Assembly: GCA_963769885.1 (NCBI GenBank)
Contig: CAVYNH010000004.1
Coordinates: 256,001-320,000, forward strand
Direction of reading: 5' to 3'
DNA length: 64,000 bases
Source: Methanobacteriota archaeon
Lineage (GTDB): Archaea > Thermoplasmatota > E2 > DHVEG-1
Shown: positions 31,418 to 51,880 of the stretch, piece after piece
Numbering within the stretch: position 1 is the first letter of the stretch
Layout of the letters: every line of letters starts with the position of its first letter
The notes under the pieces: model-generated
The model's input: the letters and a program-made list of their open reading frames with translations, nothing else
The model's database searches: none
Told to the model about the DNA's origin: nothing
Program-made: the position numbers and the translations under genes

Positions 31418-31465
31418 GGCATGTGGGGAAACTCTTATATCCTGGGGCGGGGAATGGTGGGGGAA

Positions 31466-34426: not shown

Positions 34427-36245
34427 TCAATCATATTGGATGTGCAGGATCGGCGGGTTGTTCGGATCTTGTCGTGACCGGAAGTACGTACACACGTTTT
34501 CTCCACTCGTGTCCGCGAGGCGCCAGCCGTAGTTCGGTGTGCCGTGGTAGAAGCTGATGATGTCGCTTGTGACGTCCACAGTCATCCACAATCCAGGCTG
34601 AGATGGGATGTGTCCTGTTGCGCTGGATTGAGGGACATAGGATGGCTGGTTGTTCCATGTCGAAGTGTTTTCGTCCCAGGGGCTCGTGATCCTGTAGAAG
34701 TTAACCGGGTTTCCGGCCGGGTTTCCGTCAACACTCTTCCAGTAGTAGATATCCATGGTGGCGGAGCTGATGGTGATATTCGGTGGGAGCATGCTGAGGT
34801 CGTATTGAAGGAGGATGTCCCATTCCCACCCAGAGAGGCTTCGGACGACGATGTGATCGAGGGGGCCGCAGTTCCAATCGGGGTGGTTCTCCTCGAGGGT
34901 GTTGTCTTGGATTGGATTGATGTGGAATTCGTGTTCGGCAGTGGTCTGGAAGGTATAGACCTGATGGCTGGAGTGGGTGCCGTCTGAGGCGTTGACGTAC
35001 CATGTGGTACTGAGTCGAATACTGTAAATTGGAGACCGGGATGCTGAATCGGCCGTTATGCTGGTTGGTCTGGCTGCCGTGGCCGATGTCAGGGGAGGTT
35101 TCGACGGTGTAGCTGATGGGGTCGTTTTGGTAGTCGGTGAGGGTGAAGCTGAGGTTGCCGAGGGTGATGGGGATGTACTTTGCATGGTCTATTGGCTTGG
35201 GGTCTGTGATGGCGGGGGCGAGCATTTCGGTCGTGAAGCTGTAGGTTCCGATGGTGGTGTCTTTTCCATCGGAGACTTGGACGGTCCAGGTGTATGTAGT
35301 CGAGCTTTGGAGGTTTGTGATGGGGACCGTGTAGGTCCCATCGCGTTTCATGTTCCCGTTGCCGCCGCCGACGTCCGGGGTGGTGGTGACGCTGTAGCTC
35401 ATGAAGTCGCTGTCATCGTCCTTGATGTGGAACTGGAGTTCGTTCGTGTTCGTGGAGACATGGGTCGCGCCGTCGAGGGGGAAGACCGCAGAGACTTCTG
35501 GTGGGTTGTTAGGCGGCCATTGTTCAATGTAATCTGCGGTGACTTTGGTGTAGGCTGCGTACCCGATGAGGCCGTAGCCGCTGAGCGGCGGGAGGAAGAT
35601 GCTGAAGCCGATGCCCCAGAAGCCGAGGGCGATGCCTTGCTGGCTTCCTTCGGCGATGAACCCGGTCCGGGAGACAAGGCCGCCGACTGAGGTGATCCCG
35701 TATGAGGTCTTCCATCCGACGAACAGGCGGGGGATCGGGAGTTGGATAATAGGGATGAGCCTGGGGAGGATGATGATGGGGAAGGCGCTGCCTGTCCCAG
35801 AGGTGGCGAAGTTGCAGAGGAACTCTCGGTCGGTCGTCCCATAGGGGAGAGGCGAGGCGTGGGTTGCAGTATGGGCGGCGAGGCGTTCACCGTACTGCCG
35901 GATTATGGTGTGAGCCTCGGTCGCGGTCATGCCCTTGGGGAGGAGGCCGAATGCCTCCGCCTTGGCAAGAATCTGTTGTTGGAGGGCTCGGGTTTCGGTA
36001 GATTGGGGATCGTCTCCGGTCGCCTGGGTGAGTGCAGTAAGGAGCGTCTGGAAGTCTTGAGCGGCCTGTCTGGTCACGGTCACGGTTTGCGGTTTACCGC
36101 CGAAGTAGCAGGTGATTCTCGCTGCCTCGTTTTTCTCCTGCTCCGTAGTGGTTGAGGCGTGGTGTGACAGCAAGGATGCCGGTACAGTAGAGCTAACCAG
36201 CATGAAGGTGAGAACTGCGAGTGAGAAAAGTATCTTGTTTTTCAT
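34427..36245 (-). CDS. Secreted protein with Ig-like repeats and C-terminal DNRLRE-like domain; +1 frameshift near 35006
   Basis: TAC-C-ACA-TGG: removing one C gives YSTQYTWYVN and joins ORFs 34728-36245 and 34427-35185. Confidence 0.75.
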
Positions 36246-36377
36246 AAGTCCGTCCTTCCTTTACCCCGTGTATTAGAATTTCCTTCCCATATATTAAGTT
36301 TATTCTAGGCAGAAAATTAATTGAATAGGCTGTGATAAAGGAAGAAAATCTCCTTAAAATCGTTGTGAAAGGGGTTA

Positions 36378-36668
36378 TTATTCGATTATTTTCTTTGGGT
36401 AGCGGCCGGGGGAGATCGGGCCTTTCTTCCGTCCGTCTTCCCTGATGACGTTGTTGATGCCGTAGGGGTGGTTCTTCAGGGCGTTGTGCAGGTTGACGTG
36501 GCAGGCTGGGCAGACCCTGATCGCGATGTTCTTCTGGTAGTCGATGTGGTGCAGACACAGGCGGCGGTCCTCCAGGGATGGTCTCTCACTGGATTTCGCC
36601 CGTGCTGGCGGGACGTCCTCCCTTGGAACAAGTTCGATGCCGCAGACCTTGCAGTGGTACGGTTTCAC
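36378..36668 (-). CDS. Small zinc-binding HNH-like protein
   Basis: CKVC...LHHIDY...VCPACH...H. Confidence 0.65.
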   Translation of the reverse strand: MKPYHCKVCGIELVPREDVPPARAKSSERPSLEDRRLCLHHIDYQKNIAIRVCPACHVNLHNALKNHPYGINNVIREDGRKKGPISPGRYPKKIIE

Positions 36669-36727
36669 TGGTCTTTCCTATCAGAAATGAGGCTGATAAA
36701 CCTATGTTTTGAAAAATCTTTTTTTCA

Positions 36728-37954
36728 CTAGGCGTGGAGGAACAAGGATGTCTTGAGGATGAGGAAGACTTCGTTTTCGGTATAAATGTTTATTGGAAGC
36801 AAGGCCTGGCTCCTGCTGTACAGGAGGTATGGCCAGTACCCCGGCTTCGAGACGGTTATCAAGTAATGCCACGTGTGCTGGGTAGAACCTGCCAGCGTGA
36901 CGTCACATAGACCGGCGGTGTTGGTATAGCCGGACCCGGCGGCAGGGTCGCGGAGAAGGCGGGGAAGAAGGTCGAGTAAAAAGACATGGACTCTTGCCCC
37001 TTCGAGGGGCGCGGACCAGTTGCTATTGGGGTCTGTGGCCCATACGGTGACATGGACGATGACCGTCGGCGCTTCTGGCGTGTCGTCGGATGCCGAGAGC
37101 CCAGCGTAGTTATAGGCGATTGCCTCGACCGTTATATTTTCGTTCAATGAGTCGATCCATTCGAACGGTGCCTCGGTATCAGTATAGCAATGTCCTCCCA
37201 TCAAGTGAAATTCGACATAGTTTACCCCGCTTTCGCGATCCACAGCTTTGGCCACAAACACGAGATTATTTACTATCTTTTCCCTGAAGAGTGTGATCTC
37301 CGGCGGCGTCTGGTCAAACTTTAAAGATATAGGTTTTCCATAAACCTTGTTCCCCACATTATCTTTGCAATAGGTCTCGAAAGACGGATGATACTGACTG
37401 ATATTGAAGGGACCAGTGTATGGCTGCCACTCATGGTTGGGAGAGTACCGCCACCAAAGCTCCTTGACGCCAGATCCAGGCGTGGTGCTCCCCGCAAGGA
37501 TAGGGTCAACAGCTGTCAGCGTGACAGTGACGTTGCTGATGTACCATCCATGTTGCCCGTTCGGCCAAGGAGGATCGCTCGCCGAGACTATAGGAGGCGT
37601 TCCATCAATCTTGACTTCTACCTGTTTCACATCCTCAATGTTCCCAGCGTTGTCCACCGAATAAAACTGGACCACCGTAACTCCTTCGATTACGAACACG
37701 ATGCCCTCTGAATAAACCTGCCAGCTGCCATTATTACACCGGAAGTAAGTAACGTTCACCCCGGACTCATTGTCCGTCGCATTCAACGTCATTGTGACCC
37801 CCGGCTGCCAGAACCCATTCCACCCCTGCGGATTAAAAACGGCGACCGTCACAGGAGGCGTCATGTCATCGCGGGATGACATTGACCCTCCACACACTAG
37901 CATCACCATGCAGAGACAGAAAAAAATCCCGACTGTTTTCCTCCACATTAACAT
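36728..37954 (-). CDS. Secreted protein with Ig-like beta-sandwich repeats
   Basis: Signal peptide; repeated D.TPP...LNATDNESGV / SVDNAGN. Confidence 0.75.
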   Translation of the reverse strand: MLMWRKTVGIFFCLCMVMLVCGGSMSSRDDMTPPVTVAVFNPQGWNGFWQPGVTMTLNATDNESGVNVTYFRCNNGSWQVYSEGIVFVIEGVTVVQFYSVDNAGNIEDVKQVEVKIDGTPPIVSASDPPWPNGQHGWYISNVTVTLTAVDPILAGSTTPGSGVKELWWRYSPNHEWQPYTGPFNISQYHPSFETYCKDNVGNKVYGKPISLKFDQTPPEITLFREKIVNNLVFVAKAVDRESGVNYVEFHLMGGHCYTDTEAPFEWIDSLNENITVEAIAYNYAGLSASDDTPEAPTVIVHVTVWATDPNSNWSAPLEGARVHVFLLDLLPRLLRDPAAGSGYTNTAGLCDVTLAGSTQHTWHYLITVSKPGYWPYLLYSRSQALLPINIYTENEVFLILKTSLFLHA

Positions 37955-38134
37955 CTTCCCTCAAATAATAAAGGATGAACACATTAATTAATCTATTCAA
38001 ACGAACAAATTTCTTCTTATAAAAAGGCGAAGAGCTAAACTCTCATCCCTCAATATACTCCAACCTAGTTCCTCGCCCTCCGCTGTCACCCAAACGTTTA
38101 TGAGCCTCTTATCAATGCTCCCTGGGTAAGAGTA

Positions 38135-39685
38135 ATGGATCAGCGATTCGCACTCCTCAGCGTTTTTGATAAAACCAGTATTACCGACCTCGCCAGCGCC
38201 TTCGCCGCCGCCGACATCAGGATCCTCTCCACCGGCGGCACCGCCAAGGCCCTCAAGGCCGCCCGCATCCCCTACACCGAGGTCTCCGACTACACCGGCT
38301 TCCCCGAGATGCTCGACGGCCGCGTCAAAACCCTCCACCCCAAGATCCACGCCGGCATCCTCGCCCAACGACACAACAAAGACCACACCGCCACCCTCAC
38401 CAAACACGAAATCACCCTCATCGACTACGTCGTCTGCAACCTCTACCCCTTCGAAACCACCATCCAAAAACCCCACGTCACCATCGAAGACGCCATCGAG
38501 AACATCGACATCGGCGGCCCCAGCCTCCTTCGCGCCGCCGCCAAGAACTACCCCGGCGTCGTCGTCCTCACCTCACCAGCCCAATACCCAGACGTCATCA
38601 CCGCCCTGAAAACCAAGACCCCCATCACCCTCGAGCAGCGCCAGCAGTACGCCATCGCCGCCTACGCCCACACCGCCCAATACGACACCCTCATCACCAC
38701 CTACCTCCGCACCACATGGGCACCCGACCCTTACCCCACCGACCTCACCCTCACCTTCAGAAAAAAACAAGCCATGCGCTACGGCGAAAACCCACACCAA
38801 CACGCAGCCTTCTACCACACCCTCCCACCACCAACCGAGCCCTGCATCACCACCACCACCCAACTCCACGGCAAAGAACTCTCCTACAACAACATCCTCG
38901 ACAGCAACACCGCCATCGAAACCCTCAAAGAATTCACCGCCCCCACCTGCGTCATCGTCAAACACGCCACCCCCTGCGGCATCGCCACCGCCCTCACCCC
39001 CCTCCAAGCTTGGAAAGACGCGTACGCCACCGACGTCTACAGCCCCTACGGCGGCATCGTCGCCTTCAACCGCCAACTCGACGCCGACACCGCCACCGAA
39101 CTTGGCCAGTACTTCCTCGAAGTCATCATCGCCCCCGACTACACCCCTCAAGCCCAAACCATCCTTGAACAAAAAAAGAACCTCAGACTCCTCACCCTCC
39201 CCGGCCTCGACAAAGAAATCACACGCGGCGGCACCGAATACCGTAGCGTCGTCGGCGGCCTCCTCACCCAAGACCGCGACACCACCTTCACCCCCCCAGA
39301 CACCTGGAAAACCGTCACCACCACACACCCAACACAAGCCCAACTCGACAGCATGGCCTTCGCCGCCCGCTGCGTCAAACACATCAAATCCAACAGCGTC
39401 GTCTTCGTCACCGGCACCCAAACCGTCGGCATCGGCGGCGGACAGACCAGCAGAGTCGACGCCGTCTGGATCGCCACCCACAAAGGCCAAGACCGCATCC
39501 GCGGCAGCACCATGGCCTCCGACGCCTTCTTCCCCTTCAGAGACGCCGTCGACGTCGCCGCCCAAGCCGGCGTCGCCGCCATCCTCCAACCCGGCGGCAG
39601 CATCCGCGACGACGAAGTCATCCAAGCCGCCAACGAACACCACATCCCCATGGTCTTCACCGGCCAACGCTACTTCCGCCACTAA
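38135..39685 (+). CDS. purH: Bifunctional AICAR transformylase/IMP cyclohydrolase
   Basis: STGGT, GRVKTLHP, IDIGGP, RYGENPHQ, ASDAFFPF, QPGGS. Confidence 0.96.
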   Translation: MDQRFALLSVFDKTSITDLASAFAAADIRILSTGGTAKALKAARIPYTEVSDYTGFPEMLDGRVKTLHPKIHAGILAQRHNKDHTATLTKHEITLIDYVVCNLYPFETTIQKPHVTIEDAIENIDIGGPSLLRAAAKNYPGVVVLTSPAQYPDVITALKTKTPITLEQRQQYAIAAYAHTAQYDTLITTYLRTTWAPDPYPTDLTLTFRKKQAMRYGENPHQHAAFYHTLPPPTEPCITTTTQLHGKELSYNNILDSNTAIETLKEFTAPTCVIVKHATPCGIATALTPLQAWKDAYATDVYSPYGGIVAFNRQLDADTATELGQYFLEVIIAPDYTPQAQTILEQKKNLRLLTLPGLDKEITRGGTEYRSVVGGLLTQDRDTTFTPPDTWKTVTTTHPTQAQLDSMAFAARCVKHIKSNSVVFVTGTQTVGIGGGQTSRVDAVWIATHKGQDRIRGSTMASDAFFPFRDAVDVAAQAGVAAILQPGGSIRDDEVIQAANEHHIPMVFTGQRYFRH

Positions 39686-39713
39686 AAACAAAAACCAAAC
39701 AAAACGGACACCC

Positions 39714-41486
39714 ATGCACCTCACCATCAAAGCCCGCGACGGACCCGCCCGCACCGGCATCCTCACCATCCACGACACCACCATCCACACCCCCTCCATC
39801 CTCACCCTCACCCCCACCACCATCCCCAACACCATCCACCTCACCACCATCCCCACCACCCTCTTCTCCCCACACCCCAAACCCACCAGCTACCTCCTCT
39901 ACCCCAACAACCTCCCACTCCCCTTCCAAAAAGAGACACTCACCTCCTCACAAAAAACCCCAGACCTCCACCTCATCCCCCCGACCCCAGAACTCCTCAC
40001 TAACCTCACCACCACCCCCGGCACCTTCTACACCGTCACCAACGCCGCCCAACTCTACCACCACCAAACCGCCTTCGTCGCCTTCATCACCACCCTCCGC
40101 CAGACCCTCGCCCCCGAAAGCCTCCTCTACCTCCCCGCCATCGCCACCCCCACCACCCTCGCCATCCTCACCTACCTCGGCGCCGACCTCACCGACACCA
40201 CCCAAGCCCACCTCGCCGCCCACCACCACACCCTCCTCTTCCCCACCGGCCCCATCCCCCAAACCGACCTCACCGAACTCCCCTGCCACTGCCCAACCTG
40301 CACCACTATCAAAGACCCAACAACCATGACCTGCTCCGACATCCTCACCCACAACATCCACGCCCTCACCACCGAAGCCCAACACATCCGCACCGCCATC
40401 ACCCGCGGCACCCTCCGCGAACACGTCGAAACCCGCGTCCGCGCCGACCCACACGCCACCGCACTCCTCCGACTCCTCGACCACAACCACCCCGCCTACC
40501 TCGAAGAAGCCACCCCCCTCACCAGACGCTACCCCCTCCTCGCCACCACCCGCGAAGCCCTCACCCGCCCCGAAGTCCGCCGCTACCAACACCGCGTCCT
40601 CTACCGCTACCACAAACCACCAACCGCCCACATCCTCCTCCTGCTCCCCTGTGCCGCCCACAAACCATACTCCGAATCCAAAAGCCACACCCTCTTCCGA
40701 GCCGCCCTGCTCGCCAGCCCCAACCCCTGGGCAGTGCACGAACTCATCGTCACCTCCCCCCTCGGCCTCGTCCCTCGCGAACTCGAGATCGTCCCCCCAG
40801 CCTCCTGCTACGACATCGCGGTCACCGGCCACTGGGACGACGACGAGAAGACCATGATCACCCGACTCCTCCGCCACTACCTCGCAGCCAACCGATACGA
40901 CCAGATCATCAGCCACCTCGGCCCCCACCTCCATGCCATTGTCGAAGCCTTGATCCCTGGCGCGACGGTGACCTGCGTAGACATCCCAACCTCGGACGCA
41001 TCACTCGACCGTCTCAAACAGGAGCTCGGTGTCCGCACCGCTCAGTACCCCCGGGTCAGCCCAGCCCAGCATGCCTGCGAAGAAGTCAGCGCCGTCGCCG
41101 CCTACCAGTTCGGCCCAGCCATCGCCGCCGCCCTCATGAAAGACAGCGCCGTCCGCGGTCGCTACCCGTACCGCAAGATCCTCAAGAGCAACAAGCAGCT
41201 CGGCATGATCACCGACCGAGGCCTCATCTCCTTGACGTTTGGCGGTGCGCAGGCCTGCGCCGCCGAATCTGGGTACTCCGTCACCATCGCGGACGACTTC
41301 CGCCTAATCGGCTCCGTGTTCGCTCCCGGCATCATCCAGGCCGACCCAGGAATCCGCATCGGGGACGACGTCTGGGTGAGACAAAACAACATGGTCCGCG
41401 GCGTCGGCGTCGCGACCATGAGCGGACCGGAGATGAACCGCGCACGGCACGGGGAGGCGATACGAATCCGCCATCGCCATACCTGA
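39714..41486 (+). CDS. arcS: Archaeosine synthase alpha subunit (TGT-like, DUF5591-type and PUA domains)
   Basis: RDGPARTG, CHCPTC, LLLPCAAHKPYS, TSPLGLVPRELE, C-terminal PUA. ATG at 39714. Confidence 0.9.
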   Translation: MHLTIKARDGPARTGILTIHDTTIHTPSILTLTPTTIPNTIHLTTIPTTLFSPHPKPTSYLLYPNNLPLPFQKETLTSSQKTPDLHLIPPTPELLTNLTTTPGTFYTVTNAAQLYHHQTAFVAFITTLRQTLAPESLLYLPAIATPTTLAILTYLGADLTDTTQAHLAAHHHTLLFPTGPIPQTDLTELPCHCPTCTTIKDPTTMTCSDILTHNIHALTTEAQHIRTAITRGTLREHVETRVRADPHATALLRLLDHNHPAYLEEATPLTRRYPLLATTREALTRPEVRRYQHRVLYRYHKPPTAHILLLLPCAAHKPYSESKSHTLFRAALLASPNPWAVHELIVTSPLGLVPRELEIVPPASCYDIAVTGHWDDDEKTMITRLLRHYLAANRYDQIISHLGPHLHAIVEALIPGATVTCVDIPTSDASLDRLKQELGVRTAQYPRVSPAQHACEEVSAVAAYQFGPAIAAALMKDSAVRGRYPYRKILKSNKQLGMITDRGLISLTFGGAQACAAESGYSVTIADDFRLIGSVFAPGIIQADPGIRIGDDVWVRQNNMVRGVGVATMSGPEMNRARHGEAIRIRHRHT

Positions 41487-41508
41487 GCTAAAAAAAGAAA
41501 ACGGTCCC

Positions 41509-41850
41509 TTATTTTCTTGCAGCGACCGTAATCGTGCCCATGTACCCGCACTGGGGGCAGGTATGAGTAAACGAGGTCGGCTTCTTGGTGCGGACCGAGA
41601 GGGAGAACGTCTTCTTACAGGAAGGGCAACGATACAGATGCACGGCAGAGGCAGGGGCTTTGTCAGTCGGAGACTTCGCAGTCTTCCGCACCCCAAGCAG
41701 CATCCATACAAGCGGGATGAGCAGGACAACGTCGACGAAGAGAACCTGCAGCATCCACCCGTTCTCATTGACCATATCATACATTGCGACGATCAGCGTC
41801 ACCAGACCCAGGGGGATGACGCAAACCGCGATGAGGACGCGTCGGTTCAT
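41509..41850 (-). CDS. Small membrane protein with C-terminal zinc ribbon
   Basis: Two TMs, CPSC...CPQCG; GGAGG SD. Confidence 0.7.
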   Translation of the reverse strand: MNRRVLIAVCVIPLGLVTLIVAMYDMVNENGWMLQVLFVDVVLLIPLVWMLLGVRKTAKSPTDKAPASAVHLYRCPSCKKTFSLSVRTKKPTSFTHTCPQCGYMGTITVAARK

Positions 41851-41854
41851 GAGG

Positions 41855-44834
41855 CTACCTCCTCCGAATAACGAGAAGGCCGAGGAGGAAGATGACGACG
41901 AAGAACACCACCGCGAGGGTGAGGTAAAGAGCATGGTCCTGAAAGACCTCGATCAGGGATGCCTCTTGGCGGCCATGCAGAGGGTCTGTATGGGCAGTGT
42001 ACTCTTGTAGGTTACTGGCACCGTCCCCGTCCGAGTCGATGAGGGCATCCGAGGCGTTGTACGGGTCAAGCCCGTACAACAGTTCCCAGTCATCCGGCAG
42101 CCCGTCGTTGTCGGTGTCGTTGAGATCGAGGGTGATCCAGAACGTCATCTCGGGGCTGCGGGCGGTGTTGTTATAGTAGTCGACGCTGGAGACGCGATAG
42201 ATGTACTTACCGAGGTCGTGGTAGATCTGGGTGATTTGATAGTATCCGGTCGTGTTCTTTTGGAGGATCACGTCAGAGTAGGTGCCATCAGGCGTGGTGA
42301 TGCGGGCTTGGACGCTGCGGATGCCGTAGTTGTCGTGGGTCCCGCAGGTGATCTTCACGGGAAGGCCGGGGAGCTGGACCTGGGGCTCGACTTCGATGAG
42401 GTCCAGGGACGGCGGGGTCTTGTCGATGACGACGGTGAAGTTCCCCGTAGCAGTGGCCTTGTTTTTAAAGTAGGCGGCGTCGGTCGCGGTGATCGTAAAG
42501 CTGTATCTCCCGAGGGCCCAGGTATCCAGCAGGGTGTAGCGATACCTGGTATCGTTGAGGAGGGTCATGTTGGCGGCGAGTTGGGTGTTCTTGGGGGTTT
42601 TGATGGTGATGCTGACGAGGCTGATACCGGAGGCGTCGGTCGCCCTGACGGTGAAGATGGCGGGGAATCCTTTTTCGATGATGCCGGGCTCTTCGAGGAT
42701 GCTGATGACGGGCTTGTTCTTTTCCGCCGGGATGACCACCAGGGGTCGGTCGAGGCGTTTGAGGCGGTTGTTCGTGTCGTTGTAGTCTGGGGTGGAGGCG
42801 TTGGGGTGAATCTCGACGCCGACGTAACCATTCCCCCCTGTATTTCTCGTCGCCGTACTTGACGGGGGACCAGGTGAGGTCGACGATCATGGTCTCTCCC
42901 ACGTCAAGGGAGATGGTCGTGGAGTTCACTTCTCCTGTGTAGAGCACGTTGGGGGGGTCGTGCTGTTCGACGAAGAGGGCGATGGTGTAGTTGACGCCGG
43001 TCTTATGTCCGTTGTTGCGGATGGTGGTGGCGATGACTCCGGCGCCGTACTCGTTGAGGGCTGTGCTCGGCAGGCTGATGTCGACAACGGTGAAGTCGGC
43101 AGCGCCTTGGACGGTGACGGTGGCGGTCTTGTTGTTGTTGGCGGTGTTCGGCTCGGTGTAGTCCGAGCAGCTGATGGTGACGGTGATCTTGTAGGTGCCT
43201 TGGGTGGGGTGCCAGTAGCAGACGAAGCTGGTGTTCTTGTCTTTTGGTAGCACGTTTCCGGTGGAGTTCAAGAGGTAGGTGGAGTTGCATTTGAAGCTGA
43301 TGCGGACGTCGGGGACGGTGGCGTTGGTGGCAGTGGCGTAGGCGGTGATGGTGACGTTGCCTTCCGTGGGGGTGTTAGGGAATCGCAGGTATGTGAGGGC
43401 GATGTCCGGGATGGTGATGTTGAGGGAGTAGTTCTGCCGATTGATGTACCCGGCGTTGTCTATGGCGGTGGCGCGAATGCTCCAGTTGCCTCTGGGGAGG
43501 TTGAGGCGCTGGGTCCATTTGAGGGTATCGAGGGTGGAGAACGTCAGGGTCCGGTTGAAATGGCCGTTGAGGAGGAGGTCGGCGGTGACGGATTTGGCTT
43601 TCGCGACGGTTTTCAGGGTGATGGTGAAGTCTGTATTCGGCAGATAGAAGGTTTGGATGACGGTGGAGGGCTCCAGCCACCAGCCTTCGGGGTTGCTGGT
43701 GGAGTCGATGACGGCGGTGCCGGGGTTTTGGTGGATGGGTTTGGAGAGGTTGGTCCGGGTGCCGTTGTTGTCGTAGGTGTCGAAGTAGACGAGGTAGAAA
43801 CCGCGGCCGGTGACAGCCCAAGTGAGGTCTCCTTTCGCGTTGGTCTGAGAAGCGTAGTCGTTGGCTCTAGTGAACTTATAGGGGATGACGTTGTTTTTTC
43901 CGGCAGCGTATTTGACGACGGTAATAGTGGCGTCTTCAAGGGGCTTACTAGTGAGGCCGAGGGTGTGGAGTGCGGCGGTGAAGTTCACGGTCTTGGTGAG
44001 GTTTCCGGTGCCGGTGGCATTGTAGTAGTAGCGGTAGTGCCAGCTGGTGTTCCACCAGGGGATTTTAACCGTGGTGATGGTGGCGACGAGGGTGGCGGTG
44101 TTGTTGGTTTCGTTGAGTTCGTAGACGGTATGGTCTGGGTCGAGGACGATGGTGACGGTGGTAAGACCGGCGGTGGTCGGGGTCCAGCTGAAGGTGAGGG
44201 CCCAGAGTTGGCCGTGTTGGAGGCCAATGATGGCGGTGGTGTTGATGGTTTTGTCATTGATGCGGCAGTCGGCGTGGATGGTTTCGGTGGTGTTGGCGCC
44301 GGTGTTGGTCGCAGTGGCTTGCAGGGTGATGAGGGAGCCGACGGTGGTGGTGCCGGTGAGGGTGATTGGGGTGGTGAAGGCGAGGTCTGGGGGCGGGGGG
44401 TGGATGGTGATGGTGGCGGTGCGGTAGTTGTTGTGGGGGTTGGGGTCGTTGAGGCCGGTGCGGGCGGTGAAGTTGAGGGTGCGGTTTTGTGGTAGGTTGG
44501 CGGGATGGTGGCTAGTGAATTTGGCGATCCAGTAGAGGGTGAAGGTATGGTGGGTGGTGGTGAGGGTGATGGTGGTGTTGATGCTGGTGGTGTAGGTGCC
44601 GTCGACGAGGAGGCTGACGTTGATCCAGGTATTGTTATTGAGGTTGGGGGGGGTGGTGATGTTGACGGGGAGGGTGAGGTTGGTGCCGACGATGGTATCG
44701 GTGGGGATGGTGAGGGGGTCGATGGAGAGGTCGACTTGGGTGGAGGCGGTGGCGGGGAGGGCGAGGGATGGTAGAATGATGAGGACGGCCAGTACGGTGA
44801 GTATCGTGTGCGTGGTAGAACCAGGGTTTTGCAT
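41855..44834 (-). CDS. Large cell-surface protein (CARDB and Ig repeats, Ca-binding DxDxDG repeats, C-terminal TM); +1 frameshift near 42830
   Basis: PDL...ELNETNN CARDB; DTDNDGLPDDWE...DSDGDG; TM followed by RRR. Frames join across GGGGGGAATGGTTAC. Confidence 0.75.
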
Positions 44835-44917
44835 TGTTCTCCTCCCGATGTGCTGGCGTCATATTTGGTTCGTAGTATTTCTATTTTTTGATAAAAATAT
44901 CGGCTTTCGGGTATTTA

Positions 44918-46162
44918 TTATTCGGTCAGTCGGTAGGGTCTGAGGTCGACGTAGTCGCCGAGGCGGACCCAGAGGGCGAGGTGGGTGAGGCCGGTGAGGG
45001 TGATGTTGGCGCTGAGGGAGGCGTAGAGGCGGGTGGGGGGGAGGAGCGGGCGGCCGTGAGGCAGGAGGATTTTCCAGGAGAAGAAGATGGTGCCGGTGAA
45101 TTTGGTGGTGGCGTGGGGGGTGAGTTCGTGTTCGGTGAGGTTCCCGTAGGCGAGGTAGTTAAGGCCAGTGGAGAGGACTGAGTAGTAGTCGATGCGCAGA
45201 TCCTTGACGTAGAGGGGGAGGCTGGAGGGGTTGTAGACGGTGAGGTTGGTTTCTCCTTGAATGCCGCCTTTGACGCGGTGGGTGTCGACGAAGAGGCGTA
45301 GTTCGATGGGGGCGGTGTGGGGAAGGAGGGTTCCGAGGTCGGGGAATGCGAGGGTGACGGCGGTGCTGAGGGGGAGGGTTTTAGTGGTGCCGGCGATGAT
45401 GGCGCTGGCTTTGCTAGTGAAGGTGATGGTAAGGGTTTGGGCGTTGAGGATGCTGAAGGCGAGGAAGCCGTTGCTGTAAAGGGTGGCATTGGCCTTGGCA
45501 GGGATGGTGCCGTTGGTGATGGGGAGGAGGGTGACGGTTTCGTTGGTTTCGTTGCCGATGCTGAGGGTGGTGTCGTGGAGGCCGAGGGCGAAGGCGTTGG
45601 GGTTGGTGATGGTGATGGTGGTGTTGAGGGCGATGCTGGTGTTGGTGATGGTGCCGAGGGTGGGGGCGATGTGGATGGTGGGGAGGTGGATCTGGTCGAT
45701 GAGGTCGTCGATGCTGGCTTGGATGGTGAGGCTGAGGGGGAGGGTTTTGTGGATGATGGCGAAGGTGATGTCGATGTCGCCGGTGAGGGCGGCGGTGAGG
45801 AGGCCGGTGAGGTTGCCGGAGAGCGTGATGGCTTTGGTGTCGGTGAGGGTGGTGGTGGTGTGGGCGGGGATGGTGCCGTTGGCGAGGGGGATGCTGGCGA
45901 GGTCGGTGGTCGTGGTGCGGAGGGTGAGGGTGAGGTGTTGGAGGCTGAGGTCAAAGTCGTTGGTGTTGTGGATGGTGAGGGTGTAAGCGAGGGTTGCCTG
46001 GTCGGTGCCGAGTGTGAAGGTGGTGACGGCGATCTCGATTTTCGGGAGGCTGGCGGAGTTGACAGTGAAGATAAGGAAGGCGCTGACGGCGATGTTGAAG
46101 ATGATGAGGATGAGGAGGACTAGGAGGGCGAAGAGGGTTCGTCGTCTGGGAAGGGGTCGCAT
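44918..46162 (-). CDS. Membrane-anchored multi-LEA_2/WHy-domain protein
   Basis: N-terminal TM; three repeats with (H/T/Y)N(T/P)(N/S)-type motifs. Confidence 0.7.
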   Translation of the reverse strand: MRPLPRRRTLFALLVLLILIIFNIAVSAFLIFTVNSASLPKIEIAVTTFTLGTDQATLAYTLTIHNTNDFDLSLQHLTLTLRTTTTDLASIPLANGTIPAHTTTTLTDTKAITLSGNLTGLLTAALTGDIDITFAIIHKTLPLSLTIQASIDDLIDQIHLPTIHIAPTLGTITNTSIALNTTITITNPNAFALGLHDTTLSIGNETNETVTLLPITNGTIPAKANATLYSNGFLAFSILNAQTLTITFTSKASAIIAGTTKTLPLSTAVTLAFPDLGTLLPHTAPIELRLFVDTHRVKGGIQGETNLTVYNPSSLPLYVKDLRIDYYSVLSTGLNYLAYGNLTEHELTPHATTKFTGTIFFSWKILLPHGRPLLPPTRLYASLSANITLTGLTHLALWVRLGDYVDLRPYRLTE

Positions 46163-46336
46163 GGTGGCGGTTTTTAATTATCTTATATTATATATATTAC
46201 TGTCGATGCCTCGGTGTTTTTATGGTTTACGGAAGGGGGAAGGCCTTTTCTTTTTGAAATCTGGATTTTTTTGTCTGTGGGAAAATAGTCGTTATACGGT
46301 ATGGTGTCTATAAAAAATAGAAAAGATGGGGGTCGC

Positions 46337-47818
46337 CTAGAACCCCAAGAGGCGTCGAAGGACCGGGAACGCATGAGGGAAATGTTCGAGTATCCAGGAG
46401 AGGATGCGCGGCGGCTGGTACGGCATCTTCACGGGGAGTGTTGACCAGTTGCTTGAGGCGTTGTAGGGATCGACTGCCTTTGCCTTGATGGTGTAGGTGC
46501 CTCGTTTTTGCCATGTGTGGTTCGCCTGCGCCGCGGCCCCGGAGTTGTATGGGCCGATTTGTTCGACTGCGCTGCCGTCCCCCCAGTCGATGAAATACCG
46601 GACTTGGTTCCCGTCGGGATCAATCGACGAGAAGGAGTATTGGACAGGTACTCGCGGTTTTCCACTGGATGGTCCATTGATCGATGGGGGTGCCGGTGGG
46701 TTGTTAATAGATTCTGAGACGACGTAGTCTATCGGAGAGCCATCGAGGTACCATTGGCCAGCGTCTTCCAAAAGTTGTCCTTCTTTTTCGGTGGTGTCGC
46801 CCGCGGTGTCATTCCCTTGCCGTTCGTCGTCGCGGTACTCAAGGAACACGCAGCCTTGCTGGGTGTAGATGCCGGCGAGCATGATGCAGTGGTGGTCATA
46901 GCATATCTCGACGTCCTCCGTCTTCAGCTCGTATTGGAGCCAGTCCTTCAGGTTCGCGGGGTTTTCCTCTGTGCAGCCGGCGACATTGTTACTCATCCAT
47001 CCAGTCAAGTCAACGAACTTGGTGACCGCCCTGCCGTCCTGTCCTTTGAGGTAGGCGGCTTTGGTCTCCAGCATCTGTTCTTCATCGTGGTGTCCTGTGC
47101 CGTGGCCGACTCCTAGGCCTGCGAGATCGTTGTAGACGTCCTGCGCGGTTTTCCCTGGTGGGAGATTCTTCAAATCGTACGTGGTATCCAGCCATTTGAT
47201 GCTGCGAGCGTATGCGCCGGTGATGCAGTTATTAGGTGCCTCTTGAACGCTGGAGATGTTGGTGTGTTTCAGAGCATCTGTGACAGGCCCTGATGCAATG
47301 TGTCCGCGGGGGAAGCCGACTTTCTGCGGGGGGTCGACGGTATGGCCCCAAGCGTCGCGATCAGAAGGTATCACCATATACGAGACATTGTTGCCTTGCG
47401 GCTGGGTTTGAAGCGGGGCACGCTCATACGAGACGATAGCTTGGAGGGAACTCAATGGCATGCCTTCGTGGAGACCGAGGTCCGCGATGTTGAAGTAGAC
47501 GACTTGGTCAAGGGGGAGATGATACGCTACGGGGAAAATCGGGTAGTTTTGGACAATCCAGGCAGGGGCATACCCAGCGGTTGCGACGATGTTAACGTAC
47601 CAAAAGGCGGAATCGGGCACGGTATGGAGATCAATTCGTCCCCACAATGAATGCATTACGAGCGGCATGCCGTTATAATACCAATCGAGCTGACTGAACG
47701 CGACGGTATGACGGGGTTGATCTACTTTATCACTGTCTATCCTTTGAGCATTTACCATAGGAATGGCGGTTGCAAGTAACAGCATGCAGATAAAGAATCC
47801 AACTATCTTCGTTTTCAT
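46337..47818 (-). CDS. Secreted protein with putative papain-like cysteine peptidase domain and PKD
   Basis: Signal peptide; QEAPNNC...HCIMLAGI...YRDD; PKD IDWGDG. Confidence 0.65.
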   Translation of the reverse strand: MKTKIVGFFICMLLLATAIPMVNAQRIDSDKVDQPRHTVAFSQLDWYYNGMPLVMHSLWGRIDLHTVPDSAFWYVNIVATAGYAPAWIVQNYPIFPVAYHLPLDQVVYFNIADLGLHEGMPLSSLQAIVSYERAPLQTQPQGNNVSYMVIPSDRDAWGHTVDPPQKVGFPRGHIASGPVTDALKHTNISSVQEAPNNCITGAYARSIKWLDTTYDLKNLPPGKTAQDVYNDLAGLGVGHGTGHHDEEQMLETKAAYLKGQDGRAVTKFVDLTGWMSNNVAGCTEENPANLKDWLQYELKTEDVEICYDHHCIMLAGIYTQQGCVFLEYRDDERQGNDTAGDTTEKEGQLLEDAGQWYLDGSPIDYVVSESINNPPAPPSINGPSSGKPRVPVQYSFSSIDPDGNQVRYFIDWGDGSAVEQIGPYNSGAAAQANHTWQKRGTYTIKAKAVDPYNASSNWSTLPVKMPYQPPRILSWILEHFPHAFPVLRRLLGF

Positions 47819-48103
47819 GGTGGCTTTCCTCCCCATGCCTAGACATGGCACACCTTCTTATTGTTCAATAGTATATAAATTTTCACAATTGAATGTACTT
47901 TGACAGATAGAAAAAAATTTTAACTAATTTGTTTTGACTGGGCTCGGTTTGATACGGTTCACTTGGAAGATAAGAATTTTTCTTGTTTATTTTTCACGGT
48001 TGAATACTGCAAGAAAGTAAAAAAAATTGAGTAAAAGAAATAGCCTCAACAGCGTAAAAATCAAAAAACTAAGATTTTTAACAAATGGAATTCATTTTGA
48101 ATC

Positions 48104-48541
48104 TCAACTCGAGCCGGCATCCAAGGCTTCGTTGACGAGGGCGTCCGCTTGGGCCTGATGGGGGTTGCTCCTGGGAACGTTTCGATAAATCACTTTTACG
48201 AAGGCTTTCTCCCGTCTTTTGACAGCTTCGTAGAGCGGGAGAAGATGGGGAGCCTTGATCTGATAAGACCCTTTCATTTGTCTGATGACGACTTCGGAGT
48301 CCATGAACACATGGACTTCCCCTTGAGTATGCCGGACTGCGAGTTGTAGCGCTTTCAGTAGCGCGGTGTACTCAGCGACGTTGTTTGTCGCAGTCCCAAT
48401 GAATTCCTTATGCCGTTCGATGACCTGGTCGTGTTCATCGAGAATAATGACGCCGATAGCCGCAGGACCGGGATTGCGTCTCGATCCCCCGTCAGCATAG
48501 ACAGAAACCAGTCGGTGTATCACAGTTACCTCGCTCTCCAA
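48104..48541 (-). CDS. rnhA: Ribonuclease HI (archaeal type)
   Basis: YADGGSRRNPGPA, TNNVAEY, MDSE, ADALVNEALD. Confidence 0.93.
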   Translation of the reverse strand: MESEVTVIHRLVSVYADGGSRRNPGPAAIGVIILDEHDQVIERHKEFIGTATNNVAEYTALLKALQLAVRHTQGEVHVFMDSEVVIRQMKGSYQIKAPHLLPLYEAVKRREKAFVKVIYRNVPRSNPHQAQADALVNEALDAGSS

Positions 48542-48736
48542 CGACTTTTGTAGGACAGACCCCTGGAGTTTAAAAAGATTTCATTAAAAAAATGAGGCTC
48601 CCGGAGCAGTCCAGGCCCCGGAGTCTTCCTATACTAGGATTCGTCAGATACCTTGCCTTGAGGAATCAAGCTTGCCCAGATGGCCGGGCTCAACCATGAG
48701 AAGAACGCACGGTGCGTCGAGGGTATCATAGGGAAA

Positions 48737-50365
48737 TCAACCGTAGAATTGCACGGAATCCAGGGAAGGACGAAGGTACGAACCATGATCTGCGTCAACA
48801 TAGAGGGAGTTGTTGGCCACCTGCGAAGTCGTGTTCCGGGCGATGCCGTCCCTCGTGTTGGGGTTCGCAAGGAACCGTGGGTAGTTGGAGCTGGAGACCG
48901 CGACCCGGATGCTGTGTCCGATGTCCCACATATACGAGATGCTCATGAGGTCGACCTCGACCCGGTAGACAGTGCCCGGCTGCATGAACTCCCAATGGTC
49001 GGTGCCATTGCGGTTCCGCATTCGCAGGATCCCATCGCAGATTAGCATGCTGCGGCCGTCTGGATACACATCCGTGAGTTTCACGGTGAAGTCCGTGTCC
49101 GGCCGATCCGAGCTGACATAAAGGACCGCGTGGACCCGGCCGGTCGCCTCGAATGGATGCGTCAGCACCGGGCTGGTGAAGACGATGACGTCGCTTCGGT
49201 TCTCGACGGGCCGCTGGTCGTAGGGACCGAGTTTACCGTAGAGCTCCTGACCACCCCGGGTGGGGACCGGGTGGTTTGGGTTATAGGCGTAGGTGAATGG
49301 GCTTCCGGCTGTCGCGGGCGACTGCAGGAGGCTGTGGTTCGCGTGGAAGTAGAAGTTGGCCGGTGTGGAGGCGGGAGGCCAGTCTGTGGTATGCCGCCAG
49401 AAATTGCCGGAGCCATTAATGTCCCCCATGACGTAATAACTCACCGCTGGGTAGCTGTCATAGCCTTCAGGATTCCCTTGGGTGTACTGATTGACCATCT
49501 TCCAGAAGAGGTCTTGGCTGATGTTGTCGACGGAGTCCTTGGGGTAGGTAAGCTGGCCTTGTTTCGTGGAGCCCATGTTGACGTGGATCCAGGGGCCAAT
49601 AATGAGCTTGGATTTCCCAAGCGCCCCAGATCCGCCGTGGTATTGGTATCCCTCATAGGCGTCGATGGTGCCCTGGGTGAAGATGTCGTACCAGCCGCCC
49701 ATGTGAATGGCGGGGACGTTGACGTCGGAATAGTGGGTGTCGATGGTGACGTTCTGCCAGAAGGGGTCGGTGCTGTTCTCGTGGAGGTAGACGTCGTCGA
49801 GTATGTAGGTGCTGTTCACGCCTTCAAGCCAGTTGACGACCAGGTTCTTGCGGAATTCGCCGCCCTGGTACATGGCCCAGGTGAAGAGGTTGGGGGTTGC
49901 GAACTGGATGAACTGGCAGGCGAGGTTTGGCGGGTTTGCGCCGGCGGTGAGGTACTGGGTGATGCCGAGGGCGGAGGCGCCGAAGGTGGCGACCTTGCCG
50001 TTGCTGAAGGATTGGTTGGCGACCCAGGCGAGGGTGTCGGGGCCGTCGGTTGACTCGTTGCGGAAGACGGTGTCGTTGCCATCGGAGTCGTGGCGCCCGC
50101 GCATGTCTTGGATGACGGTCGGCCAACCTTGGTTGGCGAAGGCTTTACCGATGAGGATTCCTTGATTTTTTCCATAGGGGGTGCGGATGAGGATGCTGCC
50201 GTGGGGCTGCTGGCCTCGTTTGGCGTAGACGTCGGTAGCGAGGCGGGTGCCGTCGCGCATGGGAACCATATAGGTCTTAGGTGCGACGCAACCGCTGAGG
50301 AGTATGGTGGTGGTGAGCAGCATGCAAAGGGCGAGGATTAGGAGTGGCGTTTTCATCTGTTTCAT
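48737..50365 (-). CDS. CocE/NonD (S15) hydrolase, lipoprotein
   Basis: LSGC lipobox, VPMRDG, RTPY, GASALG, GGWYD, GPWIH. Confidence 0.9.
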   Translation of the reverse strand: MKQMKTPLLILALCMLLTTTILLSGCVAPKTYMVPMRDGTRLATDVYAKRGQQPHGSILIRTPYGKNQGILIGKAFANQGWPTVIQDMRGRHDSDGNDTVFRNESTDGPDTLAWVANQSFSNGKVATFGASALGITQYLTAGANPPNLACQFIQFATPNLFTWAMYQGGEFRKNLVVNWLEGVNSTYILDDVYLHENSTDPFWQNVTIDTHYSDVNVPAIHMGGWYDIFTQGTIDAYEGYQYHGGSGALGKSKLIIGPWIHVNMGSTKQGQLTYPKDSVDNISQDLFWKMVNQYTQGNPEGYDSYPAVSYYVMGDINGSGNFWRHTTDWPPASTPANFYFHANHSLLQSPATAGSPFTYAYNPNHPVPTRGGQELYGKLGPYDQRPVENRSDVIVFTSPVLTHPFEATGRVHAVLYVSSDRPDTDFTVKLTDVYPDGRSMLICDGILRMRNRNGTDHWEFMQPGTVYRVEVDLMSISYMWDIGHSIRVAVSSSNYPRFLANPNTRDGIARNTTSQVANNSLYVDADHGSYLRPSLDSVQFYG

Positions 50366-50785
50366 AATCGTGTTTCCCCCTTGTAGGACTTATCATCCTT
50401 GGGTTATTTCATGGTTTCGCTCTCGGAGGGGGCGTGAAAAGGGCGGGGATGGCGGAATGTCAGGGTTGTTTTAAATAGGATGGCGGCGGAAGCAGGGTCA
50501 GGTGAACACGTGAAATACCAGCAGAAGAAGACCTATGGTGAGAGATGGGAGCACAAAGGCTATCGGCACCAATACCGAAAGAAGTATCCGCAGAAGAAAA
50601 ACTCTTCGTATAAGACGCAGTACGCCAGCTGAGCCGGTCTCCGGTCGGTTGGCGCGCAACTCCAGCTGAACCCTCATTCTTCCTCTCTCGCATCTCATTT
50701 TTCTTTCTTCTTTTGTTTTTCTGTTTTTTTATCGAAGCGATGGTACGAGTCATTAAGTAATATTGGCTGTTATCCCCTTGTGCGG

Positions 50786-51538: not shown

Positions 51539-51567
51539 TAAGAGAGGATGTCGATTGCAGGGACTCG

Positions 51568-51741
51568 ATGCGGCCGGGTCATCGTCCTCCGCGGGATAAG
51601 CGCTATTTTCATACCCAGAGAAAGTTCGATACCGCGCACCGGGTACAGCTCAATGAACGGATTGATGCGCTCGCGAAACGGCGGATTCGTCAAGTGACCA
51701 AAGCCCAGGTGAAGGCCTGCCGGAGCAGGCCGAGGGCGTAA
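51568..51741 (+). CDS. Small basic ORF with KRYFHTQRK motif
   Basis: 57 aa, followed by a terminator-like hairpin; motif shared with 32878-33084. Confidence 0.4.
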   Translation: MRPGHRPPRDKRYFHTQRKFDTAHRVQLNERIDALAKRRIRQVTKAQVKACRSRPRA

Positions 51742-51765
51742 GCTCCCCCGGGGAAAAATAAGGGG

Positions 51766-51797
51766 GTTGCCCGTCTGAACCACCTCAGGCGGACAAC
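51766..51797. terminator. Hairpin between convergent genes
   Basis: GTTGCCCGTCTGA-ACCACC-TCAGGCGGACAAC. Confidence 0.45.
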
Positions 51798-51880
51798 GAG
51801 TTTCCTAATGACCAGTGCTGATAATTACAGCCGATGGCTTAATATCAATCGAAAAATAGTGATGAAACACTATTGAATCA

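Follow-up and report, generated by a model that had tools for sequence, protein, structure and literature searches.

Kilobase-scale strand-skew domains in the genome of an uncultured archaeon

Organization of the purH-arcS region

The DNA considered here, called the window, is a stretch of 64,000 nucleotides (nt) corresponding to positions 256001-320000 of contig C4 (392 kb) of an archaeal genome obtained from a metagenome (G000; 2.09 Mb, seven contigs, 55% GC). It contains kilobase-scale domains in which one strand is very rich in C and A and its partner in G and T, and those around the genes purH and arcS (37955-46336) are described first. Positions are those of the window, and a negative GC skew means a C-rich strand.

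At the left end of this region there is an AT-rich spacer (37955-38134) located 5' of purH. Rightward from this spacer, the first onset or "head", the + strand turns C/A-rich, and its GC skew at fourfold-degenerate sites (fourfold skew) goes from -0.36 (37501-38000) to -1.00 (38001-38500). The purH gene (38135-39685, + strand), coding for AICARFT/IMPCHase (Pfam E=7e-114), has a fourfold skew of -0.98 (278 sites). It is followed on the same strand by arcS (39714-41486), the archaeosine synthase gene (Pfam DUF5591, TGT, and PUA), whose first ~600 nt are nearly G-free and whose skew weakens toward the 3' end (-1.00, -0.82, and -0.62 from 5' to 3'). The right part of the region is coded by the - strand. 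The second onset is the spacer 46163-46336, leftward from which the - strand is C/A-rich; the fourfold skew of the + strand is +0.96 at 45501, +0.66 at 46001 and +0.21 at 46501, with a jump of -0.44 at 46325. The adjacent gene for a LEA_2-domain protein (44918-46162) has an extremely C-rich coding strand (fourfold skew -0.93). The next one codes for a CARDB-domain surface protein (42465-44834; Pfam CARDB E=3e-19), and its coding strand is also C-rich, most strongly at the 5' end, the + strand fourfold skew climbing from +0.47 to +0.90 between 42501 and 44501. Since purH and arcS are on the + strand and the surface-protein genes on the - strand, the region is formed by two convergent blocks, each of them C-rich on its own coding strand. 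Their opposed tails meet at 41487-42464, a zone that includes the 3' part of a TSP3/Big_13 surface-protein gene (- strand) and in which the fourfold skew is 0.00 (41501-42000) and +0.08 (42001-42500) and the G+C content of third codon positions (GC3) is reduced.

A previous reading of this DNA, made from the sequence only and without database searches, had claimed that the skew is strong enough to reshape proteins, and the composition of ArcS bears this out. Residues 1-230 contain 55.2% of T+P+H+L and 10.4% of G+V+E+D+R, while the rest of the protein contains 28.9% and 31.7%, respectively. With respect to its relatives (seven orthologues aligned, three displayed), ArcS has V, G, R, D, and E swapped for T, I, H, N, and K.

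Other features of these loci concern length and presence. The T/P-rich N-terminal part of ArcS is variable in length: in sequences from two other metagenome runs (X1 and X2) there are 70 letters in place of 39812-39845 and 27 nt are missing at 39957, and the ArcS of a sister species carries 13 additional residues in this part. The TGT Pfam match of ArcS covers profile positions 205-354 only, the N-terminal half of the domain being diverged. A weakly skewed Big_7-domain gene (36728-37954, GC 0.52) that precedes the first onset is missing from the related strain present in X1 and X2, where a contig links 36560 to 38088 via 173 other letters. There is thus an insertion/deletion polymorphism at the purH onset site.

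Magnitude of the skew in the window

Measured over 1 kb, the GC skew of the window has its extremes in the region described above, -0.64 (39501-40500) and about +0.60 (45001-46000), and the AT skew is of contrary sign. Examples are -0.36/-0.40 (1-1500), +0.30 to +0.47 (3001-6500), -0.48 to -0.64 (38001-41000), and +0.33 to +0.61 (42501-46500). The ten C/A- or G/T-rich stretches that had been picked out by eye all show the expected sign at this scale.

Gene directions were taken from a Pfam scan (E≤1e-5) of all 268 stop-to-stop frames of at least 100 amino acids, in which matches were confined to one strand per locus. When only fourfold-degenerate sites of Pfam-supported genes are counted in 500-nt bins, the domains are again found and the signal is stronger than the sequence-only reading had stated. 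For instance, the + strand has C at 57 of 61 sites in 38001-38500 and at 98 of 106 in 40001-40500, and G at 88 of 93 in 4001-4500 and at 95 of 99 in 45501-46000. Per-gene fourfold skew ranges from -0.98 (purH) to +0.88 (core MetE). GC3 is high throughout, so that G and C are exchanged for each other.

Coding strands can be of either type, as had been noted. In addition to the C-rich genes of the purH-arcS region, the core-MetE, PterinBD, and MtrH genes on the - strand and the S2, TraB, M50, and 31421-32218 genes on the + strand have G-rich coding strands, hisS (+0.68) being another example. The observation that the skew fades or flips within operons also holds, both for arcS and for the antiporter/hydrogenase cluster, in which the fourfold skew passes from -0.90 to +0.42. 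Gradual shifts are even seen within single genes, such as the deiminase gene (669-2384), arcS, PepX, and the first antiporter gene.

Open frames of 300-430 amino acids are present opposite to or overlapping real genes at 38573-39886 (-), 39948-40934 (-), 43560-44495 (+), and 54219-55397 (+). None of these shadow frames had a Pfam match among the frames scanned. They are so long because one base is almost absent from a strand.

Genome-wide pattern: position and gene strand

The domains are not peculiar to the window. The standard deviation (SD) of the 500-nt GC skew across the genome is 0.25, compared with ~0.06 expected from sampling alone, and the absolute skew exceeds 0.3 in 23-29% of the 500-nt intervals on six of the seven contigs (12% on contig C1). 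The autocorrelation of the skew is positive up to ~2.5 kb and negative at 3-8 kb, and GC and AT skews are anticorrelated (-0.48 to -0.77). In the three largest contigs the GC skew of 40-kb bins is never beyond ±0.067, which means that the domains are not replichore-sized; as already claimed, a single origin does not explain them.

Genes were predicted genome-wide with a home-made crude caller that takes no account of whether a third position is G or C. It yielded 1,595 genes (75% of the genome) and, of the 57 genes of the window supported by Pfam, it recovered 53, on the correct strand. In the 1,365 genes that had 60 or more fourfold sites, the coding-strand fourfold skew spans from -1 to +0.9 with a mean of -0.30; C-rich coding strands (below -0.5) amount to 44% and G-rich ones (above +0.5) to 9.5%. 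The latter are real genes in most cases. In an unselected 400-kb part of contig C6, Pfam support (E≤1e-6) was found for 62 of the 74 G-rich-coding genes, among them those for enolase, TBP, CDC48, and GluRS; the other 12 had no match.

Gene strand and the per-gene skew of the + strand are correlated with r=-0.51. However, adjacent genes share + strand skew whatever their orientation, with r=0.61 for divergent (n=131), 0.50 for convergent (n=149), and 0.78 for same-strand pairs (n=623). The sign does not follow the transcribed strand of each gene, as a transcription-associated asymmetry would require, and the statement that gene strand does not account for the skew is upheld.

Base signature of the two strands

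The C/A-rich strand will be called M and its G/T-rich partner K. Fourfold sites of M contain 83.3% C, 8.0% A, 4.8% G, and 3.9% T; 95% of its NNY codons end in C and 27% of its NNR codons in G. G-rich coding strands (K) are the mirror of this, with 80.2% G, 10.6% T, 6.1% C, and 3.1% A, 26% of NNY codons ending in C, and 95% of NNR codons ending in G. This is a keto/amino asymmetry, equal to C→T plus A→G changes on K, or else to the replacement of G/T by A/C on M, superimposed on a pull toward G/C. An excess of C→T plus A→G on one strand is the mitochondrial type of signature.

The asymmetry extends to non-coding DNA and to non-synonymous positions. Intergenic skew correlates with that of the flanking genes (r=0.75) and, in spacers with strongly skewed flanks, 33 of them divergent, its mean is -0.30 or +0.31. 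Non-coding gaps of at least 200 nt have skews of +0.19 to +0.29 when located upstream of G-rich genes, of -0.12 to -0.29 upstream of C-rich ones, and of ~0 upstream of weakly skewed ones. The skew of codon positions 1+2 is correlated with that of fourfold sites (r=0.55), and C-rich and G-rich genes differ in their content of threonine (9.5 vs. 4.8%), histidine (3.4 vs. 2.0%), valine (5.3 vs. 10.3%), and glycine (6.5 vs. 8.5%).

The tRNA genes with G34, U34, and C34 are nearly all single-copy and, therefore, tRNA gene dosage is equal for C- and G-ending codons. The exclusion of codon bias as a cause, proposed earlier, is thus sustained on three grounds: this equal dosage, the skew of the spacers, and the change of skew within genes (106 vs. 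17 of 255 long genes). With respect to the tRNA set itself, ARAGORN detected 44 tRNA genes in G000, with tRNA-Trp and tRNA-Tyr not among them, and a tRNA-like gene, labelled "???", whose anticodon has four letters (gtag). Intron-containing archaeal tRNAs are likely behind these gaps.

The composition can be fitted by a four-state model only if a strong G/C pull (scaled coefficient 4-8) is combined with a G→A excess of at least 100-fold on M. A transitions-only model (loss 0.0045) and one with added G>C and T>A excess (0.0043) fit equally and, therefore, composition alone cannot separate template deamination from misincorporation. A bistable selection in which any strong skew is good was discarded, because the 500-nt distribution is unimodal at 0 and the ramps stay at intermediate values over kilobases.

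Direction of the domains and their onsets

Along the + strand the skew describes a sawtooth of gradual rises and sharp drops. Jumps of at least 0.6 comprise 22 drops and six rises, and those of at least 0.5 comprise 51 drops and 20 rises; 17 of the 22 large drops fall within divergent spacers. In positions 100-260k of contig C6, read from the per-gene list, sharp drops are ~13 kb apart. The M strand runs 5'→3' away from the sharp site.

Genome-wide, 78 sharp one-sided onsets were located. Their mean oriented skew is +0.07 before the onset and -0.46 after it, reaches 0 at ~3.3 kb, and is +0.1 at 5-6 kb. The fading over ~3 kb and the meeting of opposed tails in neutral zones produce the sawtooth. 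This consistent direction fits the proposal of a process radiating from many sites, although most onsets are one-sided. Two-sided, origin-like emission as a rule was rejected, since only 7 of the 78 onsets are clearly two-sided and divergent neighbours usually share one polarity.

In 64 of the 78 onsets there is a co-directional gene start at no more than 350 nt, and the skew starts ~150 nt 5' of the start codon. Regarding their context, 39 onsets are in divergent spacers, 20 in tandem spacers with the tail along the downstream gene, 11 within genes, and 8 at 3' gene ends. When referred to wide spacers (201 divergent, 307 tandem, 75 convergent), onsets are about five times commoner per 5' than per 3' gene end. 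In tight operons (gaps below 30 nt) the downstream drift is from C-rich to G-rich, with changes above +0.5 in 52 pairs and below -0.5 in 13, while across wide gaps the change is symmetric (36 vs. 39) and only there do resets occur. Fading from 5' to 3' predominates in C-rich genes (102 vs. 20) and in intermediate ones (54 vs. 8), whereas G-rich-coding genes show no gradient (10 vs. 8).

The domains had been described as independent of gene direction. This is right in that opposite-strand neighbours share polarity, but too strong as a general statement, because most onsets are at gene starts pointing along the tail and C-rich coding strands far exceed G-rich ones.

Artefact checks, sister species, and distribution in the lineage

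The stretch 36001-56000 was compared with contigs of four further public runs, metagenomes of wetland and freshwater sediment, and 834 places were found to differ. A strain that differs by 3-5% spans 38492-46746 and 46779-56000, that is, across all the borders of the purH-arcS region, and other-run contigs, 8.3 and 10.3 kb long, run across the borders at 41.5k, 46.2k, 50.4k, and 53.6k. Coincidence of the domains with assembly joins, which had been named as a refutation, is therefore not the case. The pooled differences of run X1 were A>G 156, C>T 136, T>C 126, and G>A 116, both polarities being mixed.

The polarity of the domains is conserved between G000 and its sister species, G001. Along 341 kb of the latter (median protein identity 78.5%, gene order largely preserved), the coding-strand skew of 172 orthologue pairs correlates with that of G000 (r=0.69), and the sign is the same in 51 of 53 strongly skewed pairs, although the amplitude is weaker (mean absolute skew 0.32 vs. 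0.52). The comparison of orthologous loci thus agrees with sites that are fixed over evolutionary time. For instance, the fourfold skew of purH is -0.98 in G000 and -0.79 in G001. Ten further genera of this family, with a GC content of 29-48% at the purH locus, range from -0.45 to +0.23.

The SD of the keto/amino skew in 500-nt intervals is 0.239 in G000, 0.144 in G001, 0.137 in G014, and 0.160 in G015 (0.045 expected from sampling), the genomes of G014 and G015 having 41% GC. It is 0.087-0.090 in the relatives G018, G008, and G003, and 0.054 in G029. In G008, G003, and G029, GC and AT skews are positively correlated, i.e., they show ordinary purine loading. These values indicate that the process predates the rise in GC, is restricted to a subclade, and is strongest in G000.

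Repair and replication genes

G000 encodes NucS/EndoMS, the sole mismatch-repair candidate found in this genome. Neither MutS nor a Y-family polymerase was found in five genomes (G000, G001, G014, G008, and G003; completeness 83-92%), and UDG was not found in G014 or G003, of the same range of completeness. UDG, EndoV, NucS, PolB, and Orc1/Cdc6 are present in skewed genomes and in at least two low-skew relatives. In vitro, NucS/EndoMS cuts A/C, C/C, and A/A mispairs very little or not at all. This blind spot could explain the sign of the asymmetry, but not its lineage, because the same genes occur in unskewed relatives. Insertion of C opposite abasic sites by a Rev1-like enzyme was discarded, as no Y-family polymerase was found.

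G000 has two Orc1/Cdc6 genes. The core SAGTGGAAA, similar to origin recognition boxes (ORB), occurs 25 times, is paired only beside cdc6, and is within 600 nt of an onset in one case. Dispersed replication initiation had been suggested as one source of the domains, and there is no sign of such origins being Orc-dependent.

A candidate replication origin is located at C6:261631-262035, 5' of orc1/cdc6 (260362-261630), which adjoins nucS (259508-260320). It consists of a long A/T tract between two ORB-like elements with G runs. At this single site the + strand skew switches from + to -, as at other sharp sites, the outgoing strands being C-rich. Along the 200 kb to its right, 64-74% of the coding is on the - strand, so that genes point toward the site.

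A strand-asymmetric mutation pressure as the best reading

The domains are best read as the footprint of a strand-asymmetric mutation pressure that acts on the DNA itself and is not a property of genes or codons. This agrees with the local mutation or repair process, radiating from many fixed sites, that the sequence-only reading had put forward. Such a process fits all the points supported above, although its version with dispersed Orc-dependent origins finds no support and most onsets are one-sided. M would lose G and T and gain C and A, K would lose C and A, and the general G/C pull at synonymous sites would turn this asymmetry into almost pure C (or G). The pressure would be anchored at fixed sites, mostly promoter-bearing spacers, with M leaving the anchor 5'→3'.

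Of the forms that this pressure could take, the one we favour, tentatively, is a one-directional process, anchored at a site and starting in most cases from a promoter region, by which a strand is replaced or its template exposed. A transaction starting at promoters and proceeding along transcription would repeatedly resynthesize the RNA-like strand or expose its template; candidates are transcript-primed or nick-primed strand replacement and long excision and refill. Two chemistries could write the signature. Either the template K strand would be deaminated (C→U, A→hypoxanthine), or A/C, C/C, and A/A mispairs would persist in the new strand, which would gain A and C. A second, position-level layer of the same polarity crosses genes of both directions and may come from read-through or antisense transcription or from a separate replication-like process. 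Three transactions have the right geometry, with a new strand running 5'→3' from the site: the promoter-launched one, resection followed by refill, and multi-site leading-strand synthesis. The explanations commonly given, in which the non-template strand or the template of the lagging strand lies exposed, would lead to the opposite sign, since here it is the RNA-like strand that is C-rich. It is conceivable, but rather doubtful, that about a hundred Orc-independent, promoter-proximal starts prime one-directional synthesis of a few kilobases from transcripts, that the sawtooth maps their activity, and that the NucS/EndoMS blind spot writes the C/A-richness.

Several facts weigh against this reading. 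The transcription-associated asymmetry of Escherichia coli and mammals makes the coding strand G+T-rich, the opposite of the sign found here, and R-loop exposure of the non-template strand would also give the opposite sign. The coding-strand skews of divergent neighbours are negatively correlated (-0.61), and a single polarity can be centred on a divergent promoter, as in hisS/deiminase. Of the 94 strongly G-rich-coding genes, 56 have no suitably directed gene before the edge of the domain and would therefore need unannotated antisense starts; 11 of the 78 onsets are intragenic and 8 are at 3' gene ends, and the domain at 57.4-60.5k is atypical, since it ramps up, drops suddenly inside the first antiporter gene, and is G-rich later. 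A search for motifs at the breakpoints had been suggested, and the analysis of 6-8-mers in the 78 onsets against 301 control upstream regions gave none: the only enriched words were C/A-rich, as a consequence of the skew itself. The composition of fourfold sites is barely affected by the preceding or following base and, therefore, there is no signature of a motif-specific deaminase. Spacers have a GC of 0.465 and a skew of ~0.3, far under the values of fourfold sites, so either they are constrained or the pressure is stronger within genes. No distinguishing gene gain or loss emerged among the seven families tried, and NucS, UDG, EndoV, and PolB are present also in unskewed relatives. Finally, the counts outside the window depend on the crude gene caller.

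Among the rival explanations, many replication initiation sites would give sharp switches at places of fixed initiation, ramps where forks meet at random, and a nascent leading strand rich in C and A; genes would be co-oriented with forks, the G-rich-coding ones being a head-on minority. The excess of C-rich over G-rich coding strands, similar to a leading-strand gene bias, agrees with this explanation, as do the polarity that crosses genes of both directions and spacers, the lack of replichore-scale skew, and the + to - switch of the sole predictable origin. The sawtooth also resembles the human skew N-domains, as they appear in the accessible parts of PMC2764438 and PMC3320577. However, only two Orc1/Cdc6 genes were found, the ORB-like core is paired only at cdc6 and has just one of its 25 occurrences near an onset, few onsets are two-sided, divergent neighbours mostly share one polarity rather than pointing apart, gene orientation in C6 converges on the cdc6 site, and a spacing of ~13 kb would mean ~150 sites in 2 Mb. 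Besides, the canonical leading strand is G-rich, and we know of no prokaryote in which it is C-rich. This explanation seems to us somewhat unlikely. Breaks or nicks recurring at hot spots of AT-rich open spacers, with 5'→3' resection and refill, would leave K exposed and deaminated and M resynthesized, so that the strand leaving the site 5'→3' is new and its partner exposed. Such a process would be akin to gene-conversion polarity gradients and to mutation clusters that are strand-coordinated near breaks. This geometry yields the observed sign without extra assumptions, resection lengths match the kilobase-scale fading tail, non-coding DNA is affected too, and damage of single-stranded DNA in yeast gives strand-coordinated clusters according to the accessible parts of PMC6786661 and PMC3521656. 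A two-ended break should nevertheless give opposed, two-sided tails, which are the exception here; the coincidence of tails with the gene that starts at the site is left unexplained, and no site motif was found. We regard resection as unlikely.

Selection could also be invoked, acting through a translational preference for NNC/NNA codons, through unstructured G-poor (or C-poor) RNA, or through avoidance of non-template R-loops and G-quadruplexes. NNC and NNA are indeed the codons read by Watson-Crick pairing by G34 and U34 tRNAs, GC3 (~0.8) greatly exceeds the GC of the spacers, fourfold sites are about three times as skewed as the latter, and the effect is strongest at gene 5' ends. Selection is quite improbable, however, in view of the equal tRNA gene dosage, of G-rich-coding genes, housekeeping ones included, that are equally extreme in reverse, of a polarity common to opposite-strand neighbours and non-coding DNA, and of the shift in amino-acid composition. 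An artefact or mosaic (chimeric assembly, sequencing error, or imported patches) might be suspected in a metagenome assembly of seven contigs with a foreign low-GC island in the window. Nevertheless, the changes are limited to synonymous or tolerated positions of intact conserved genes such as purH, contigs of a strain 3-5% different cross the borders, a separately assembled sister species has the same gene order and polarity, and it is the truly foreign DNA (8000-15500 and the Big_7 gene) that lacks skew. This explanation is extremely improbable.

Relation to known systems

In vertebrate mitochondrial DNA the L strand is A+C-rich and the H strand G+T-rich, which is attributed to the deamination of C to U and of A to hypoxanthine in the strand exposed during replication. 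The domains share with it an A+C-rich strand nearly G-free at synonymous sites and a G+T-rich partner, an effect that is strongest at fourfold sites and graded along the molecule, and a shift in amino-acid composition. They differ in that there are about a hundred domains of a few kilobases and alternating polarity on a cellular chromosome of 2 Mb, and in that C (or G) alone occupies 80-100% of fourfold sites, owing to the added G/C pull. Moreover, if the sharp sites are starts, the A+C-rich strand leaves them 5'→3', the reverse of the displaced H strand.

Human N-domains are a strand-asymmetry sawtooth with jumps at replication origins, according to the accessible parts of the N-domain sources cited above. 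As far as these go, both systems have sharp jumps of one sense and gradual returns, and the jumps tend to be located at promoters of outward-pointing genes; the present domains are ~100 times smaller (~13 kb vs. ~1 Mb), the sense of the jump is mirrored, and most onsets are one-sided. The amplitude of human N-domains is roughly ten times lower.

The coding-strand sense usual in prokaryotes is opposite to the mostly C-rich coding strand described here. Replication- and transcription-associated GC skew in bacteria and archaea is the subject of two reviews (PMC3269012 and PMC3269016). From what their accessible parts describe, it is also of keto/amino type (G+T vs. A+C), clearest at synonymous sites, and correlated with gene orientation, whereas the present skew has no replichore pattern, flips polarity every few kilobases, and reaches ±1 at fourfold sites.

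Somatic hypermutation tracts begin at a promoter and fade over 1-2 kb. Strand-coordinated (kataegis-like) mutation clusters arise in resected single-stranded DNA, as set out in the accessible parts of the two yeast-damage sources already cited. Within these limits, clusters and tracts are, like the present domains, kilobase-long, anchored at a site, coordinated on a single strand, and fading, and the geometry of the exposed strand fits the sign; they are somatic, while here there is a steady state fixed across species and without a base-context signature. No published account of kilobase-scale skew domains in archaea was found by full-text searches, subscription-only papers being outside their range. 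As far as found, the kind of phenomenon (mutational strand asymmetry) is known, and its scale, amplitude, and organization are apparently undescribed.

Strand asymmetry is the main sequence-only readout of replication, transcription, and repair, and its strength here is comparable to that in animal mitochondria, yet it is arranged in kilobase domains on a cellular chromosome. If a site-anchored DNA transaction is its cause, the genome maps the starts and the reach of this transaction in an uncultured archaeon that is not yet accessible to bench study. There are also practical consequences: gene finders and codon-usage and GC-skew tools would misread such genomes, with a risk of mis-annotation from shadow frames. 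Threonine is doubled and valine halved between domain types, and protein phylogenies would be biased by composition-driven amino-acid replacements.

Other domains of the window

The remaining domains of the window are diverse in their relation to genes. The pstSCAB operon (3335-7046, - strand) has its onset at ~7.1k, and its tail runs on beyond the operon into BioY, a convergent gene, and into the deiminase gene at its 3' end; the fourfold skew of the + strand is +0.84 to +1.00 (3501-6500), +0.67 (3001), and +0.22 (2001). To the left, a hump of a single polarity (1-1500, + strand C-rich) is centred on the divergent hisS/deiminase promoter region, with 300-nt GC skews of -0.08 at window position -1000, -0.44 at +800, and -0.14 at +1700. 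While the coding strand of hisS is G-rich, as mentioned above, the 5' part of the deiminase gene has a fourfold skew of -0.88.

The ribosomal-protein operon (15868-28091, + strand), transcribed in a single direction, includes two domains that are C-rich (L3-L23 and S8-L19e) as well as a neutral stretch, and is G-rich at its end. Per-gene fourfold skew within it ranges from -0.95 to +0.42, and the values for individual ribosomal genes are -0.95 (L3), -0.04 (S19), -0.94 (L19e), +0.03 (S5), and, for S2, +0.64. The S2, TraB, and M50 genes and an unnamed one (28733-32218, + strand) have G-rich coding strands (fourfold skew +0.64, +0.46, +0.69, and +0.78, respectively), i.e., the polarity opposes the genes. 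Coding strands are also G-rich in the PterinBD, core-MetE, MtrH, and MtrA cluster (53636-56319, - strand), the onset of which is at the 3' end of the cluster (~53.6k, with a jump of -0.43 at 53600). The + strand fourfold skew weakens from there toward the 5' end of the cluster (-0.77, -0.95, -0.63, -0.46, -0.35, and -0.15). The last C-rich domain (57355-60500, + strand) extends over a PQQ-repeat gene and the first part of the membrane hydrogenase/antiporter cluster, with fourfold skews of -0.51, -0.72, and -0.77, followed by -0.90 (60001), -0.22 (60501), and +0.42 (62001).

Apparently recent arrivals, namely the Big_7 gene and an island at 8000-15500, have little skew, the island almost none, as would be expected of DNA of recent acquisition. 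This island has 30% GC in surroundings of 55-60% GC and is located directly 5' of the L3 ribosomal-protein operon. It contains a DDE transposase of the IS240 type that has a SWIM finger (10815-11999), a type IIG restriction-modification enzyme similar to Eco57I/MmeI (12060-14885), and a gene with a PIN domain (14882-15430). Neither tRNA genes nor Rfam families were detected in the window and, therefore, its onsets are not RNA genes.

Two further observations refer to gene content. The compact cluster at 53636-56319, which codes for a DUF4346 protein that binds pterin, a methyltransferase similar to core MetE, MtrH, and MtrA, resembles a module for corrinoid/pterin methyl transfer. In the ribosomal-protein operon, S3 (19497-20468) carries an HHH_5 domain at its C-terminus and L32e (25112-25831) at its N-terminus, both being unusual fusions.

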